Below, in pieces: positions 1 through 7,682 of a stretch of DNA of 11,808 nt (positions are counted from its first letter, which is position 1; each line of letters opens with the position of its first letter). Both the position numbers and the translations under genes were made by a program. The stretch comes from a virus (Monodnaviria; Loebvirae; Hofneiviricota; Faserviricetes; Tubulavirales; Inoviridae): the IMG/VR virus record IMGVR_UViG_2563366858_000001; one strand, given 5' to 3'. Under the pieces are notes generated by a model. That model searched no databases. It was given only the letters and a program-made list of their open reading frames with translations, and was not told the DNA's origin.

Positions 1-480
1 GTGCCACGTAACGTGGATAAACCTGCGAATCGTATTGAAGATATCCACGGTATGGCTGATTTCATCAGCCAGTATCCTGGTGTTGATAGCACCCGTATTG
101 GTTTGCTGGGGATTTGCGGGGGAGGAGGGTATTCACTTGCTGCCGCCGAGACGGACAAACGATTCAAATCGATTGCAACCATTAGCATGTTTAATTCAGG
201 ACTTGTACGGCGCAATGGTATGCAGGATTCACAGTTGGATACTATTCAACAACGTCTTCAGCAGGCTTCAGATGCACGAGCTCAGGAAGTCGCCGGTGGC
301 GAAGTGCTTTACTCCGGTGATGCCAACCTGACTGATGAACAGATCGCTAAATTACCTTTTGCGTTATATCGCCAGGGCTACGAGTACTACTGGAAAACCC
401 ACGCACACCCAAACTCAACGTTTAAATACACCACGAGCAGTTTGTTAGACTTGATGAACTCAGAAATCACAACGTATTGA
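1..480 (+). CDS. Dienelactone hydrolase family protein (alpha/beta hydrolase), 5'-truncated by the window edge; stop TGA at 478-480
   Basis: Open frame from position 1. Translation contains a G-I-C-G-G-G-G-Y-S nucleophile-elbow-like motif with Cys, typical of dienelactone hydrolase-type enzymes, and a C-terminal His-containing region. Family assignment is from memory of motif style, not a search. Confidence 0.55.
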   Translation: MPRNVDKPANRIEDIHGMADFISQYPGVDSTRIGLLGICGGGGYSLAAAETDKRFKSIATISMFNSGLVRRNGMQDSQLDTIQQRLQQASDARAQEVAGGEVLYSGDANLTDEQIAKLPFALYRQGYEYYWKTHAHPNSTFKYTTSSLLDLMNSEITTY

Positions 481-529
481 TTTATCTGTGTGTGGATGTG
501 AATGGTGAAGTAAAGGACCTTCACAGTCA

Positions 530-557
530 ATTTAACATAATATACATTATGCGCACC
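530..557. other. dif: dif site (XerC/XerD chromosome dimer resolution site); functions as prophage attL
   Basis: The sequence ATTTAACATAATATACATTATGCGCACC is the exact reverse complement of the 28-bp E. coli dif core GGTGCGCATAATGTATATTATGTTAAAT as I recall it (XerD arm, 6-bp central region, XerC arm). Confidence 0.8.
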
Positions 558-697
558 AATGGTAAGGATGGCAGAATCTGGCGGGAATCGTTGACACTGG
601 CCGTCAACTGGCTACTATCGACAGTGATTCAAAATCATCCGTTTCTCCAAACGAATCAGAATCAAATGTCTGTCAGCAGTAAGTGAACGGCCTGACC

Positions 698-946
698 TCA
701 CCAATCAGGCCTGTTCATCCAGTTAGTTGGTAAATCTGTACCTGATACACGAGAATCAAACACCACTTCTTCAGTGCCATCACCATGATGCCGGATAATC
801 TGGTAACCGGATTGCGGGTTCTGGCTCTCAGCTTCATAAGCAGCCCGGAATGCTGGATCTTTGAGAAGCATCACTTTCAGCTCCTGATGTGTCATGAATT
901 TTTCCATGATAAGCCCCGATGAATGCTGCCGCGCCGAATCAGCCAT
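698..946 (-). CDS. Hypothetical small protein (about 65-82 aa depending on start; possible starts at 946, 907 or 895)
   Basis: Six-frame ORF inside the prophage between attL and the secretin gene. No strong Shine-Dalgarno before any candidate ATG. A 7-bp inverted repeat (689-695 / 705-711) straddles its stop codon. Function unknown. Confidence 0.3.
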   Translation of the reverse strand: MADSARQHSSGLIMEKFMTHQELKVMLLKDPAFRAAYEAESQNPQSGYQIIRHHGDGTEEVVFDSRVSGTDLPTNWMNRPDW

Positions 947-1091
947 AACGCTGAAAATGGAAACTGTACGGCTTGGCCAACCCCGGACAGCAACAAAACA
1001 AGTTTTGTCACTGACCGGCGTTATCTTTCAAAACAGACAGTTAACGATTTTTTGTCTGGTGTTTATGCGTGAAATTTCGTGCGTACGAAAT

Positions 1092-1340
1092 TCACCACCA
1101 ATAAACAAACGGACGATGACTGACCGGAAAAGCAATGCCGTCAGCATCATGACCACGCATTACCTGATTGAGAAGCCTTCTGACTTCACGACGCTCAGGC
1201 CTGGTCATCATCATATTGCGATACCAGGACGGCGATTTATCAAACCATCTGGCACAACTGGCAAAATGTGAACCTACACGACGATAAGACTTAAGGCGTC
1301 CACCGGGAAGTCGGTCACGCGCCTTATTTTTTACAGACAT
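1092..1340 (-). CDS. Hypothetical small basic (Arg-rich) protein, 82 aa
   Basis: ATG at 1338-1340 is preceded on the minus strand by GAGGA with a spacing of about 6 nt (a strong RBS). The protein is rich in Arg/Lys, compatible with nucleic-acid binding. It lies immediately downstream of the secretin gene. Confidence 0.4.
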   Translation of the reverse strand: MSVKNKARDRLPGGRLKSYRRVGSHFASCARWFDKSPSWYRNMMMTRPERREVRRLLNQVMRGHDADGIAFPVSHRPFVYWW

Positions 1341-1428
1341 AATAAATCCTCTAAGTAACTGAATACCTAGAAGATGTCGTACTGTTCATACCCCATAAAA
1401 GTTAACGCCATAATAAAAATCCATACAA

Positions 1429-2673
1429 TCAGTTCAGGTTGTCCCGGAACAGTTCACCGCTCCTCGCGGCGCTGCGGGGCGTCGCCCTGCTCCGGTCAAC
1501 CTTTCTGACCTGAAGCATCACCATAATATCAGTCTTGTTGCTTTCACTGGTACGGGAACCGAAGAAGCTCCAGCCGGAACTGGCCTTACTGTCTTTCTGT
1601 TCAGCAAGGCCACCAAGTAAAATAATATCACCATCTGCAAGGCTGACTTCGGTTGTTACATCACGCTTGATAAGGGTTGGCGAGTTATTGACGCCGGTTT
1701 CAGTGGTCACAAAGTTGGAAAGCTGCTGCTGAATCTTGAGATCCATTGTCCGACTTTTGATTGATGGCGTCACGTTAAACAAAACACCGCTGGAACGATA
1801 TTCAACGGATTGCGTTGTCGTATTGTTATTCACCGTAACACTGCCCAGTACTGGCACATCAGAGCCGACTGAAAAAGACGCTGAGGCATTATTTTTTACC
1901 CGCAGTCGTGGCGCACTGACAACAGTAAAACGACTGTCGGTTTTCAGCAGATTGAAAATGGCATCAATGGAGCCGGTTCGAATATTGATAAAATTATCCA
2001 GTCCGGCAGCACCAACTGAAATATTGAATTTATCAGACAGAATTTTAGCCGCTAAAAGAATGCCGGAGCCGTCAGACTGCGAGGTCTGAACCTCAAAAAC
2101 ATAACCAGAAACAACCACTTCATCACTCATCGTATCCAGCGAAGTGACCAGTGTTTTCAGGATGGCGATATCCTCTTTCGTACCATAATAAACCAGAATA
2201 TCACCGGTTCGATTGATGTAGTTGCTTGCCCCTGATGAACCTTTTAGCGAATCGTCAGAAATCACGGCTCCACTGTTATTGAAGGAGCCTGAAACGTAGC
2301 CGCCAAGAATATCAGACAGGTAAGCAACAGAACGGTACTGAGGCGTATAAGTCCATGTATAACGTGGCTTAACCGGCTCTTTCGGCGTATAGGGCGCGAT
2401 AAAATCAACACCCTTTTTCGTCCATATTCGAATGTTCATATTGCCAAGATAACGGGTTACAAATTCCCGTTCATCAATATCAGGTGTTAACCTGAATGTA
2501 ATCATTCGTTCATCATTAACAAGCTGTGGATCTAGCATATACGGGACTTTAAGCACCTCACTGTAAATAAGAGAAATAGCCTCCGGTAGCTTGACTTTAT
2601 TTAATTCAAGCTCTGACCCTGCGAAAGCACATGAAGAAAATAGTAGCGTTAATGCGAGTAAAATCTTTTTCAT
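1429..2673 (-). CDS. Filamentous phage pIV-like outer-membrane secretin (virion export channel), 414 aa
   Basis: N-terminal signal peptide (MKKILLALTLLFSSCAFA) and a C-terminal secretin-type domain rich in Gly/Ser/Thr/Val beta-strand repeats (e.g. VVSAPRLRVKNNASASFSVGSDVPV, ILLGGL). The length is typical of phage pIV rather than T2SS GspD. Its ATG overlaps the stop of the upstream Zot-like gene (TAATG at 2671-2675), with a GGGGA RBS. Confidence 0.85.
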   Translation of the reverse strand: MKKILLALTLLFSSCAFAGSELELNKVKLPEAISLIYSEVLKVPYMLDPQLVNDERMITFRLTPDIDEREFVTRYLGNMNIRIWTKKGVDFIAPYTPKEPVKPRYTWTYTPQYRSVAYLSDILGGYVSGSFNNSGAVISDDSLKGSSGASNYINRTGDILVYYGTKEDIAILKTLVTSLDTMSDEVVVSGYVFEVQTSQSDGSGILLAAKILSDKFNISVGAAGLDNFINIRTGSIDAIFNLLKTDSRFTVVSAPRLRVKNNASASFSVGSDVPVLGSVTVNNNTTTQSVEYRSSGVLFNVTPSIKSRTMDLKIQQQLSNFVTTETGVNNSPTLIKRDVTTEVSLADGDIILLGGLAEQKDSKASSGWSFFGSRTSESNKTDIMVMLQVRKVDRSRATPRSAARSGELFRDNLN

Positions 2674-3698
2674 TATTTTTTCCCCGTATAAAGCGTCACA
2701 CGCTCACCATCAATAATTCCGCTCATCAACATCCCTTTGTAATTAAAACTGGATGCAGGAACGGCACGCAAAACACCGGCACCGTTAACAAGAATCACAA
2801 ACGCCCTGCCTTCACTGGTCATTCTCCCTGATATACGCCACTCGGTTGAAAGTGGCGGTTCAGCTGGTTCTGAGGGAGTATCTGGTGCTGGAGTAGCAGC
2901 GGAAGAACGAAACATGGCCGCATCACGTACATCTGTTGTAGTCAAATCTGGCGAGGGATCGCTTCGGCCAAACGTGCTGAAAAATGAGTAAATCAGCCAG
3001 CCTGACCCGATAAACATCAATGGAAAAAGCACAAGAAAGAACCTGACTTTGCCAGAATTCCAGATGCTCTGGCGTTTATCTGTCTGCTTTTCATTACCGT
3101 TATTTCCTTCATAACTTTTGTAAAGTTCAAAAATATCAGGGTTATATTTATTGCGATAACTGGTGACGAGGTTGCTTTTATAGATTTTGTGGCCTGAATA
3201 TACGTCAATGCAATAATGATTATTCAGGCCCAACGCTTTCAGCTTGCGCATCCGGTAAGTTGTTTCTATTTTGTCTTTCAGAAAGCGAGCAATATTAGAA
3301 AGTGACTGATTTACAATAACCAAATCACAGCTAATACCCGTTTCAGGGTGCGTAAAATGACGATGTTCAGCAATAAATGATTTCTTCTCAGCCGTCATAT
3401 CCTTATCGCTACCGAAGATTCGCCATGCTTCATCAATAACAATTAAATCACCAAACTGGCAAAAGCTCCCTTCCCCACCTTTAAAAGGAAAGAAATCTGC
3501 TTTAAGCACATCATCATTATCCACAACAATAATTTCTCCCGTTGCATCAGGATAACGTTCGGTGATTTTATCTTTTTGTAAACCATAAATGTTCGTCACA
3601 ACTCTCCGGCCGCTGGTAAATGCCGGAATAATGACATTGTAAACGGCTTCATAACTTTTTCCTGAGCCGGGTATGCCAATATATGCAGAAATAGCCAT
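2673..3698 (-). CDS. Zot-like / pI assembly ATPase (filamentous phage morphogenesis protein), 341 aa
   Basis: Walker A motif GIPGSGKS near the N-terminus, Walker B-like LIVIDEAW, and a hydrophobic membrane-spanning segment (FFLVLFPLMFIGSGWLIYSFF) followed by a periplasmic C-terminal region. This is the architecture of pI/Zot. Confidence 0.85.
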   Translation of the reverse strand: MAISAYIGIPGSGKSYEAVYNVIIPAFTSGRRVVTNIYGLQKDKITERYPDATGEIIVVDNDDVLKADFFPFKGGEGSFCQFGDLIVIDEAWRIFGSDKDMTAEKKSFIAEHRHFTHPETGISCDLVIVNQSLSNIARFLKDKIETTYRMRKLKALGLNNHYCIDVYSGHKIYKSNLVTSYRNKYNPDIFELYKSYEGNNGNEKQTDKRQSIWNSGKVRFFLVLFPLMFIGSGWLIYSFFSTFGRSDPSPDLTTTDVRDAAMFRSSAATPAPDTPSEPAEPPLSTEWRISGRMTSEGRAFVILVNGAGVLRAVPASSFNYKGMLMSGIIDGERVTLYTGKK

Positions 3699-6300: not shown

Positions 6301-6618
6301 TCAGCCTTTTATTTCAGTAATGCCGCCATCTGATGAAATGTTATAAGTTACTCCTTCCCTCCCCTCCATTGACCAGACGCGAACATATACAGGTATCTGG
6401 ACTAACTTACCGATAAAATTATTTGCCTGATTCATTACACCGGCATTAACAAGAGCCTGAGATACACGAATAATAATCTGGTCTTGCTTAGTGCCGCCAA
6501 AACCATCAGGAATCTCTAAGCCAACACCAATTTCATTATAGTATCCCTGACCATTGACCTTATTACGCTGGCGAGCACCAAGCATTTTACCTTTTACAAA
6601 AAGACCATAATTAGACAT
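6301..6618 (-). CDS. Putative ssDNA-binding protein (pV-like), 105 aa
   Basis: Small protein immediately downstream of rep, in the Ff gV position. Strong AAGGAG RBS 7 nt upstream of the ATG at 6616-6618. Assignment is by position and size, not by recognised motifs. Confidence 0.5.
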   Translation of the reverse strand: MSNYGLFVKGKMLGARQRNKVNGQGYYNEIGVGLEIPDGFGGTKQDQIIIRVSQALVNAGVMNQANNFIGKLVQIPVYVRVWSMEGREGVTYNISSDGGITEIKG

Positions 6619-6629
6619 ATCACTCTCCT

Positions 6630-7682
6630 TTAATGCCAGTTACTGGCATGTGAAATACGGTTATAATCGAAAATTAAACCTTTCTCATAAACCCATGATG
6701 GAATTTTGGCTGGTTTGGCTTCAAGAGTACGAACCAACGGAACAACGTTATTAGAATCCGGTGACTCACAATAAAAGTTAATATCTATTCCGAAAGAAAG
6801 TAATTCTTTACGGTGTCGGTAGAATGTAGGTTTCGGTAACATCTCTTTCATGTTCGCGCCCTGCTTCCACAATAAATATGTAGACTGTATTTTTCTTGGG
6901 AGATTAATTATTTTTTCATCAGTTAATATAGTATTTTGATTCATTTCTATTCTCCCTACATAGTCAGAGAATAATTTATTGGGCGTCTCAATATTCCAGC
7001 TATTACCAAGCGTAAGATTCAAATCAATTAATTCAGTTGTTCTTAATGTTAATTCAATGCGTAATTTATCTTTTGACCAGTCCAGTAAACCAGCTTTAAC
7101 GAATTCGTCTGCCATCTGGTGCCCTTTTTTGCCAGATGTATGCTCATCATATTTTGAATAAAATTTCAGGCTCCAACGACGGGAGTTTTTCCCTAAGTAA
7201 ACAGTGCCACCTTTACCACAGGCGCGACCGTGGCGAGTTTTAGCTTTAAATTCTGCGGCATATAACCATGCGCGGACATTTTCTAATGTTGACAATGAAT
7301 ACATGTAATTGATATCGATGCGCGAGATCTTAAATTGCCCTTCCATGACCTGCCGATAGGATGGTAGATCATGAGGAATATGCAGTAATGCCAATATTCT
7401 GGCGTAAGCTGTTAACACCAACCCTTGCAAATCGTCGGAACCGATAACAGAGTGACCTTGCAAAAACTTTGATGGATTACCGTCAATGTAGAGATGTGTT
7501 GCCCGACCTTCACCATCAGATCCAACAGACCTTACTTTCATTGTGGACTCATGCGAACCGCGAACGGTCAACCGTTTTACTGTTTCCCACTCCACTGCAC
7601 CGTCAGCATCGACGCTGACGACACTACCAGCCGGTAACGGTCGGTGTGTGCAAGGCAGGATTCCGGTAAACCAGTCGATCAT
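6630..7682 (-). CDS. Rolling-circle replication initiation protein (pII / RstA-like), 350 aa
   Basis: First gene of the minus-strand operon, divergent from an HTH repressor. Size and position match the filamentous phage replication initiator. Contains His-rich (LHIPHD) and Tyr-containing (KFYSKYDEH) segments that could be HUH-type motifs. No search was run. Confidence 0.7.
   Translation of the reverse strand: MIDWFTGILPCTHRPLPAGSVVSVDADGAVEWETVKRLTVRGSHESTMKVRSVGSDGEGRATHLYIDGNPSKFLQGHSVIGSDDLQGLVLTAYARILALLHIPHDLPSYRQVMEGQFKISRIDINYMYSLSTLENVRAWLYAAEFKAKTRHGRACGKGGTVYLGKNSRRWSLKFYSKYDEHTSGKKGHQMADEFVKAGLLDWSKDKLRIELTLRTTELIDLNLTLGNSWNIETPNKLFSDYVGRIEMNQNTILTDEKIINLPRKIQSTYLLWKQGANMKEMLPKPTFYRHRKELLSFGIDINFYCESPDSNNVVPLVRTLEAKPAKIPSWVYEKGLIFDYNRISHASNWH

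Follow-up and report, generated by a model that had tools for sequence, protein, structure and literature searches.

The filamentous phages YpfPhi of Yersinia pestis and CUS-1 of Escherichia coli K1 have been described in a review, with exactly the organisation reported below; in YpfPhi, two small genes adjoining the regenerated chromosome dimer resolution site (dif), YPO2280a and YPO2281, take the position of ctxAB in CTXphi and “have no predictable functions” (PMC4266046). In TLCphi, another element that integrates at dif, the Xer activation factor XafT has a helix-turn-helix domain and is defined by the domain DUF3653 (PMC6744903); factors of its type bind XerD and activate recombination independently of FtsK. 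Here we report on the homologues of the two YpfPhi genes, ORF82 and ORF69, in IMG/VR record IMGVR_UViG_2563366858_000001 (Inoviridae), a stretch of 11,808 nt that was analysed at its full length and is referred to as the window. The window holds a complete CUS-1/YpfPhi-type filamentous prophage, inserted at the dif site of the E. coli chromosome. An original prediction, made from the DNA sequence, had proposed that the two small open reading frames (ORFs) between the secretin gene and dif encode regulators or a XafT-like factor. Our best joint reading, to which we assign a probability of roughly 0.6, is that they are independent genes: ORF82 would be a core gene, gated by a leader ORF and belonging to a family common to many mobile elements, ORF69 would be cargo, and the hairpins between them would be cis elements. 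The features on which this reading turns are as follows (window positions; aa, amino acids).

1092..1340, minus strand: ORF82, homologue of YPO2280a, 82 aa, a core gene directly after the secretin gene
1367..1411, minus strand: 14-codon leader mini-ORF, MALTFMGYEQYDIF-stop, conserved upstream of ORF82
1346..1375, minus strand: 12-bp mRNA hairpin, with the AGAGGA of ORF82 in its 3' arm and the stop codon of the mini-ORF in its 5' arm
698..907, minus strand: ORF69, homologue of YPO2281, an acidic protein of 69 aa (isoelectric point 5.2); the mechanical ORF extends to 946
979..1022, minus strand: conserved 20-bp hairpin, candidate packaging signal or minus-strand origin, with 21-nt arms at 979..999 and 1002..1022
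about 927..977, minus strand: second intergenic stem, GGCCAAGCCG ... CGGCGCGGC, seen in folds; coordinates approximate, no formal covariation test
530..557, minus strand: regenerated chromosomal dif at the end of the prophage, its XerC arm facing the phage, an exact 28/28 match to GGTGCGCATAATGTATATTATGTTAAAT

The identity of the two genes is plain from the copies in Y. pestis NCTC5923, to which ORF82 is 100% and ORF69 97% identical; gene order is shared with those loci, and so is the location, with the secretin gene on one side and the regenerated dif on the other. We have therefore rediscovered genes that are known but unexplained: those of YpfPhi and their CUS-1 homologues (E. coli O18:K1:H7) are the same genes, with no difference at the sequence level, and they are in the literature as ORFs without explanation. 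The review (PMC4266046) gives neither the start of ORF69 nor the leader ORF, the hairpins or the wider family, and in the literature searched the mini-ORF switch across the family, the wide distribution of ORF82 relatives and the conserved downstream hairpin appear to be new. Among deposited phage genomes, the DNA of 480..1500 had no match, and tblastn returned a single weak match for ORF82 and none for ORF69.

As had been predicted, both ORFs lie between the secretin gene and an exact dif (0 of 200 shuffles gave such a match by chance), and the one at 1092..1340 encodes an Arg-rich protein of 82 aa with 18 Lys and Arg against 6 Asp and Glu (9.9 kDa, net charge +12, isoelectric point 11.5). 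The protein is thus small and strongly basic as claimed, which makes nucleic-acid binding plausible, and we consider it most likely that ORF82 would bind nucleic acid. The conservation check proposed along with the prediction also came out in its favour, both ORFs being conserved as proteins under purifying selection, with a ratio of nonsynonymous to synonymous substitution rates (dN/dS) of about 0.15. In each of 27 distinct alleles ORF82 has exactly 82 codons; the alleles come from six genera (Escherichia, Yersinia, Pantoea, Brenneria, Xenorhabdus and Zobellella), and across 294 pairs the median dN/dS was 0.145 and the mean dS 1.29.

Position is equally constant. Across 38 related loci, from genomes and viral contigs, ORF82 was found directly 3' of the secretin gene wherever inovirus genes were present, and in each inovirus locus no other conserved gene lay between it and dif. 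Its stop codon is 534 nt from dif in the window (stop at 1092, dif end at 557), 35 bp in Zobellella, 129 bp in Pantoea, 349 bp in Brenneria and roughly 0.7–2.4 kb in Xenorhabdus. In a mosaic group of loci (L002 and L033-L036), the secretin pIV was 26% identical to that of the window and no relative of pI was detected, whereas ORF82 was 80–84% and the replication protein pII 96% identical; because ORF82 and pII stay conserved while pIV and pI are exchanged, ORF82 belongs modularly to the replication and intergenic side of the phage. These mosaic loci occupy the same dif site, and with their coat and assembly module replaced they carry a 140-aa membrane protein that is 99% identical, a repressor that is only 40% identical and, instead of ORF69, an 81-aa ORF on the opposite strand.

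The spacer between pIV and ORF82 is 88 nt long and holds both the leader ORF and a hairpin. The ‘strong’ GAGGA ribosome-binding site of the prediction is there, as AGAGGA 7 nt before the ATG, but it is base-paired in the conserved hairpin at 1346..1375. The free energy of this structure as RNA is about -14 kcal/mol, and over 20 distinct sequences 95% of cells are paired, with many G-U pairs and two compensatory pairs. The leader ORF was present in the 25 distinct loci listed, Zobellella included, and in 24 of them it occupied -72..-27 relative to the ORF82 start (the differing offset in L036 is an extraction artefact). Its last eight residues read G-Y-E-Q-x-D-I-F, and at five of these the third codon base is divided about 50:50 (GGG/GGA, GAA/GAG, CAG/CAA, GAC/GAT and ATC/ATT) while the residue is kept, which argues for selection on the translated leader peptide. 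A search of Rfam with 450..1500 gave no match.

A short upstream ORF that runs into a hairpin sequestering the Shine-Dalgarno sequence is the anatomy of leader-ORF control, and it is from this geometry that we infer gating of ORF82. A ribosome that terminates or stalls at the stop codon of the leader would occupy the 5' arm, releasing the Shine-Dalgarno sequence of ORF82; otherwise the hairpin would bury the ribosome-binding site, so that translation of ORF82 would depend on that of the leader. Such an arrangement would suit a protein required, or tolerable, only at low and controlled levels. Precedents for control by leaders include the erm and cat leader peptides, mok-hok coupling and the upstream ORFs of iraD and mgtA, with the lambda bar minigenes as a precedent for versions of 2–4 codons. 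Like these, the ORF82 leader ends in a hairpin that pairs with the downstream Shine-Dalgarno sequence, and its conserved C-terminal residues would fit a leader on which the ribosome pauses, although we know of no arrest peptide that ...GYEQxDIF resembles. In contrast to these systems, no antisense RNA or inducing ligand is evident for ORF82, and the ORF82 device appears to travel with one protein family over phages, plasmids and islands.

That family was delimited by a profile search of 1.8 billion cluster representatives, which yielded 149 ORF82 relatives of 49–146 aa (E up to 1e-3; clusters at 50% identity). Its members share the motif P-x-WW...(T)RP-x-RR...G-x-D-x-D...P...KPHxYYW, with KPHxYYW at the C-terminus, and no Pfam, NCBIfam, PADLOC or Protein Data Bank (PDB) assignment was obtained for any of the 149 representatives. 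The only PDB candidate among sequence profiles, Prp4, was at chance level and was rejected. The genomic contexts were varied: an island with genes for a tyrosine integrase, ParA, a lytic transglycosylase and AlpA-like helix-turn-helix (HTH) proteins; islands dense in Fic, HicB, ParE and HigB genes; a contig carrying an endolysin gene; 38 viral contigs of 5–260 kb, most of them >30 kb; Salmonella IncFIB plasmids, in which the gene is close to traI and to ParB/phosphoadenosine phosphosulfate (PAPS)-reductase genes; and a Proteus MOBQ plasmid. No conserved neighbour gene was found across these contexts, nor was the family as a whole concentrated beside dif, the distant relatives being in integrase/ParA islands, plasmids and viral contigs. 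As the profile search places it, ORF82 is the inovirus member of a large unnamed family of small basic proteins spanning phages, plasmids and integrative islands. Because the family is common to so many kinds of mobile element, a role specific to Xer recombination or to filament assembly is unlikely for ORF82.

Upstream mini-ORFs recur with the distant genes. The integrase island has MHYLDQDIF-stop, the contig with the endolysin gene MNYMSYDIF-stop, two viral contigs M(Y/N)Y(Y/F)AEDIF-stop and a toxin-antitoxin island MDIF-stop, and many viral contigs have mini-ORFs of 2–4 codons (MT-stop, MRL-stop, MLF-stop), all of which have a Shine-Dalgarno sequence of their own. Counted strictly (short, preceded by a Shine-Dalgarno sequence and ending 12–32 nt before the gene start), such mini-ORFs precede 30 of 53 family genes, compared with 32 of 501 other genes from these loci (Fisher p 2e-18, odds ratio 19); the first count is conservative, since most inovirus copies carry the ORF yet fail the strict Shine-Dalgarno criterion. 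A covariance model of the inovirus leader found one significant distant match in 573 kb (E 0.016), sitting exactly before the family gene on the contig with the endolysin gene, and from this single match we conclude that the distant leaders mostly resemble the inovirus leader in layout and not in sequence. Among the family leaders (L041-L093), the mini-ORFs mostly end in TAG, the stop codon least used in these bacteria, in the context TAG(G/A)TA; a few end in TAA or TGA. Whether all this amounts to an undescribed multi-element family (at least 149 clusters) whose gene carries a portable translational switch, in the form of a mini-ORF of 2–14 codons that often ends in ...D-I-F-stop and has its stop codon within a hairpin masking the Shine-Dalgarno sequence, is in our estimation evenly balanced.

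The second ORF had been placed at 698..946. The ORF is present and its stop codon lies 140 nt from dif as stated, but the start probably lies elsewhere: position 907, giving 69 aa, is the most likely one because the PHROG profile (phrog_6642, E 1e-53) and all homologues begin at residue 14 of the longer ORF (MEKFMTHQ.../MKKF...). A G-rich, Shine-Dalgarno-like stretch precedes the ATG at 907, and the RefSeq version is shorter still (698..895, 65 aa). Homologues are 54–96 aa long and come from Enterobacterales in all cases where the source names the organism. They share the core MKKFxTHxELKxxLLKDPAFRAAYEAESQNPxxDYQIIRHHDDGTEEVVFDS, followed by a variable tail, and this 52-codon core has a dN/dS of 0.09–0.25 in pairs with measurable dS. 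The first ~26 residues match the N-terminal extension of HTH_37/XRE regulators (E 1e-5 to 7e-3), with a short segment, probably of beta structure, in place of their HTH domain. Searches of Pfam, NCBIfam, PADLOC and PDB gave no match for ORF69; RNA polymerase beta' came up among the PDB sequence profiles at chance level and was rejected.

ORF69 is absent from most loci that carry ORF82. The homologue is frameshifted in Xenorhabdus (L008/L009), and some E. coli copies have lost the centre of the protein through an in-frame deletion (L027 5842..5955; P0044 and P0046). Such absences, frameshifts and internal deletions, seen in many relatives, mark ORF69 as optional, a piece of cargo in a variable zone beside the phage attachment site (attP). 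Comparable hypervariable regions have been reported in Vibrio inoviruses (PMC12715192). Like ctxAB of CTXphi, ORF69 occupies the cargo slot between the morphogenesis genes and attP; unlike ctxAB, this acidic protein of 69 aa has no similarity to any toxin. In our reading, ORF82 and ORF69 are two independent, unrelated units and not a pair; across loci the gap between them runs from 184 nt (with the start at 907) to about 350 nt, with hairpins inside.

The prediction had also expected a packaging signal or origin in this interval, and conserved hairpins of that kind were indeed found. The viral strand (minus) of 947..1091 folds with a z score of -3.8. Ten distinct enterobacterial phages have the hairpin of 979..1022, at 24–90 nt after the ORF82 stop codon; base pairing holds in 92.5% of cells, compensatory changes occur at two pairs, and several one-sided changes convert mismatches or G-T pairs to Watson-Crick pairs. 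It is not a standard terminator, as no run of T follows. In the second stem, GGCCAAGCCG is conserved in 8/10 aligned sequences. The Xenorhabdus relatives have different long hairpins at the corresponding place, and in distant family members no consistent downstream hairpin was seen, only ordinary terminators. Based on its position and kind of structure, the intergenic hairpin region is likely a packaging signal and/or a minus-strand origin.

The likeness to XafT that had been suggested extends to size and position: ORF82 and ORF69 are small proteins of a dif-integrated element, encoded close to attP/dif. Domain content and attachment site set them apart, and the analogy was not borne out. Hidden Markov model searches for DUF3653 (PF12375), at E up to 1-10, found it in neither ORF, in none of 18 close and 129 distant ORF82 relatives and in no other prophage protein, whereas the PSB15/ORF112 protein of phage phiLf, used as a positive control, was detected with the same library at E 1.7e-8. 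Profile-profile comparison (hhalign) with PSB15 gave probabilities of 0.2% for ORF82 and 0.1% for ORF69. The suggested HTH domain was likewise found in neither ORF. The attachment site at the other end of the prophage is as follows.

10025..10125, minus strand: attP(+) region at the far junction of the prophage, with a pair of inverted dif-like sites forming a forked hairpin

This region folds with a free energy of -30 kcal/mol (z -7.5) and has XerC- and XerD-like arms, the XerC arm TTATGCGCACC being exact at 10115..10125. The junction between tandem copies in E. coli SCU-101 joins 10125 to 558, which confirms the attP of the circular genome. The tip of the hairpin resembles the terminator of the neighbouring 367-aa gene. 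The site is thus of the CTX type and not of the TLC type, in which XerD catalysis comes first. A CTX-type attP integrates via XerC catalysis on folded single-stranded DNA and is not known to need a XerD activator. For YpfPhi, a CTX-like attP has been noted before (PMC4266046). Gene orientation also differs from what is known of xafT, which in Vibrio CTX-I phages is transcribed in the opposite direction to zot (PMC12715192), whereas ORF82 is co-directional with the morphogenesis genes.

Could ORF82, or less likely ORF69, nevertheless be a Xer recombination factor of a new family without DUF3653, aiding XerCD at dif? The authors of the XafT study allow for activators from other superfamilies (PMC6744903), and ORF82 is the last conserved gene before dif at distances of 35 bp to about 2.4 kb. 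In Pantoea piersonii (L005 5930..6402) and Zobellella aerophila (L018 5938..6308), the leader ORF, the hairpin and an intact ORF82 stand beside dif with host genes only upstream (cytochrome c, major facilitator superfamily, XdhC and MobA genes in the former; arginase and haloacid dehalogenase-type hydrolase genes in the latter). However, an order of pIV-ORF82-cargo-attP by itself puts ORF82 near dif, and remnants beside an essential site naturally retain the gene nearest to it; most simply, the Pantoea and Zobellella copies are prophage remnants of this sort, the alternative being a minimal dif-linked element. A second dif-like site was sought in both, and only a weak match resembling a XerD arm was seen (L018 5063..5073). 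ORF69 is missing from most dif-integrated relatives, and the ORF82 relatives in tyrosine-integrase elements, plasmids and large viral contigs, beyond the dif-integrating elements, show no link to dif. Both ORFs are conserved and neither has clear homology to another function; a Xer role through a new family is, in our view, improbable.

A different specific role would have ORF82 recognise the adjacent intergenic hairpin, as a packaging-signal-binding or minus-strand-origin factor like PSB15 (ORF112) of the Xanthomonas phage phiLf, a packaging-signal-binding DUF3653 protein. Both are small basic accessory proteins of integrative filamentous phages; ORF82 adjoins a hairpin that recurs just past its stop codon in ten enterobacterial phages, gene and hairpin have remained together with the replication gene where the morphogenesis module was swapped, and the predicted N-terminal beta element and long helix are loosely like the description of PSB15. 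ORF82 lacks the LTG/WAGFxF/TPE motif that PSB15 has in its N-terminal DUF3653 hairpin, the part that binds the packaging signal, and has no sequence or profile similarity to it, and for ORF82 binding is putative. The Xenorhabdus relatives have other hairpins downstream, and the remote members on plasmids, islands and large viral contigs have neither a consistent hairpin nor filamentous packaging, so we think this role rather unlikely. Also unlikely, to our minds, is that ORF82 is a dose-sensitive effector (toxin-like, for host takeover or against host defence), with ORF69 as a possible partner or modulator, although this would account for the tight translational gating of ORF82. Relatives do occur in islands rich in toxin-antitoxin and Fic genes and on the plasmids near traI and ParB/PAPS-reductase genes, and the mini-ORF with its Shine-Dalgarno hairpin resembles the arrangement through which mok controls hok. 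The N-terminal helix of ORF69 is common to HTH_37/XRE antitoxin-type proteins, and the two proteins are oppositely charged. Yet most ORF82 loci lack ORF69, the two genes are 184 nt apart (with the start at 907) with structured DNA between them, no partner gene is conserved across the family, the best PADLOC match was not significant (E 0.004), and no antisense promoter of the kind seen with type I toxins was predicted over the leader. A type II toxin-antitoxin pair of ORF82 and ORF69 was considered separately and rejected, there being no tight linkage, no co-occurrence and no Pfam or significant PADLOC match to a toxin or antitoxin. Lastly, the idea that both ORFs are non-functional leftovers hitch-hiking with the prophage has in its favour the deleted or frameshifted ORF69 alleles; we find it scarcely credible given the strong purifying selection on both ORFs, the fixed length of ORF82 over six genera and the conserved leader.

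Several observations weigh against our reading of ORF82 as a leader-gated, independent member of a mobile-element family. Neither protein could be assigned a function by homology (Pfam, NCBIfam, PADLOC, PHROGs and PDB); the PHROGs matched are families without an assigned function. The AlphaFold2 model of ORF82 from a deep alignment, with a predicted local distance difference test score of 77 and a predicted template modelling score of 0.5, has a short N-terminal beta element, a long helix (residues 38–61) and an extended aromatic C-terminus; it is of medium confidence and has no structural match to known folds. Charge is the sole basis for the proposed binding of nucleic acid. In the leader, the hairpin also constrains I-F and the stop codon, so that only G-Y-E-Q-x-D clearly argues for selection on the peptide, and the leader's own Shine-Dalgarno sequence is weak in E. 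coli. Finally, ORF82 is alone beside dif in Pantoea and Zobellella and dif-adjacent in every inovirus locus, a pattern that a dif-related role would also explain.

The remaining prophage genes are those of a CUS-1/YpfPhi-type phage, an identity that follows from the gene order pII-pV-pVIII-pIII-pVI-pI-pIV, which matches the known phage. On the minus strand of the window an 83-aa membrane protein lies between pV and pVIII. Four of the genes were located as follows.

6630..7682, minus strand: pII, replication protein
6301..6618, minus strand: pV
2673..3698, minus strand: pI/Zot
1429..2673, minus strand: pIV secretin, last morphogenesis gene and upstream neighbour of ORF82 (Pfam Secretin, E 1e-24; phrog_1012, E 8e-138)

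The plus strand carries an HTH repressor and two proteins without functional assignment. These two, beside attP, are the 140-aa membrane protein (8397..8819) and a 367-aa protein (8921..10024), which matched only PHROGs without function and had no match in Pfam or PADLOC; YpfPhi has YPO2271/YPO2272 in their place. To the left, the host flank has an acetylxylan-esterase-like gene, and to the right it has hipA/hipB. The prophage was found at >80% coverage in about 96 complete E. coli genomes, often in tandem.

Some of these copies are rearranged. In E. coli SCU-101, the Zot and secretin genes are fused through a deletion to give a 378-aa product, in both copies of the tandem array (L001 12950..14086 and 21383..22519), and the host flank on the dif side, with a partial LysR gene and the acetylxylan-esterase gene, is tandemly duplicated (L001 9665..11898). 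A tandem CUS-1-like prophage is also present inside a 248 kb IncFIB/IncHI1B plasmid of Klebsiella pneumoniae (NZ_CP132684.1, L094), where the cargo on the repressor side differs, with three small ORFs replacing the 367-aa gene. The 9565 bp circular E. coli ‘plasmid’ record NZ_CP128883.1 (L053) is the replicative form of this phage, with the same genes as the window prophage and an ORF82 that is 100% identical.

Links have been reported between the phages CUS-1 and YpfPhi and the fitness that E. coli K1 and the plague bacillus have in the host. Stable integration of YpfPhi is confined to one branch of Y. pestis, for a reason that the review leaves open (PMC4266046), and ruling out a XafT-type role for these ORFs narrows the search for what controls CUS-1/YpfPhi integration. 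If the family-wide switch is real, it would be a compact regulatory device overlooked by annotation pipelines, which miss it because the 14-codon ORF is unannotated in every record examined. A portable switch of this kind would suggest that many mobile elements have in common a function for which dose is critical, and perhaps also that the leader peptide is a new one of the ribosome-pausing type. As a core gene with a gating leader, relatives in phages, plasmids and islands and a conserved hairpin just downstream, ORF82 provides experimental handles on these possibilities.

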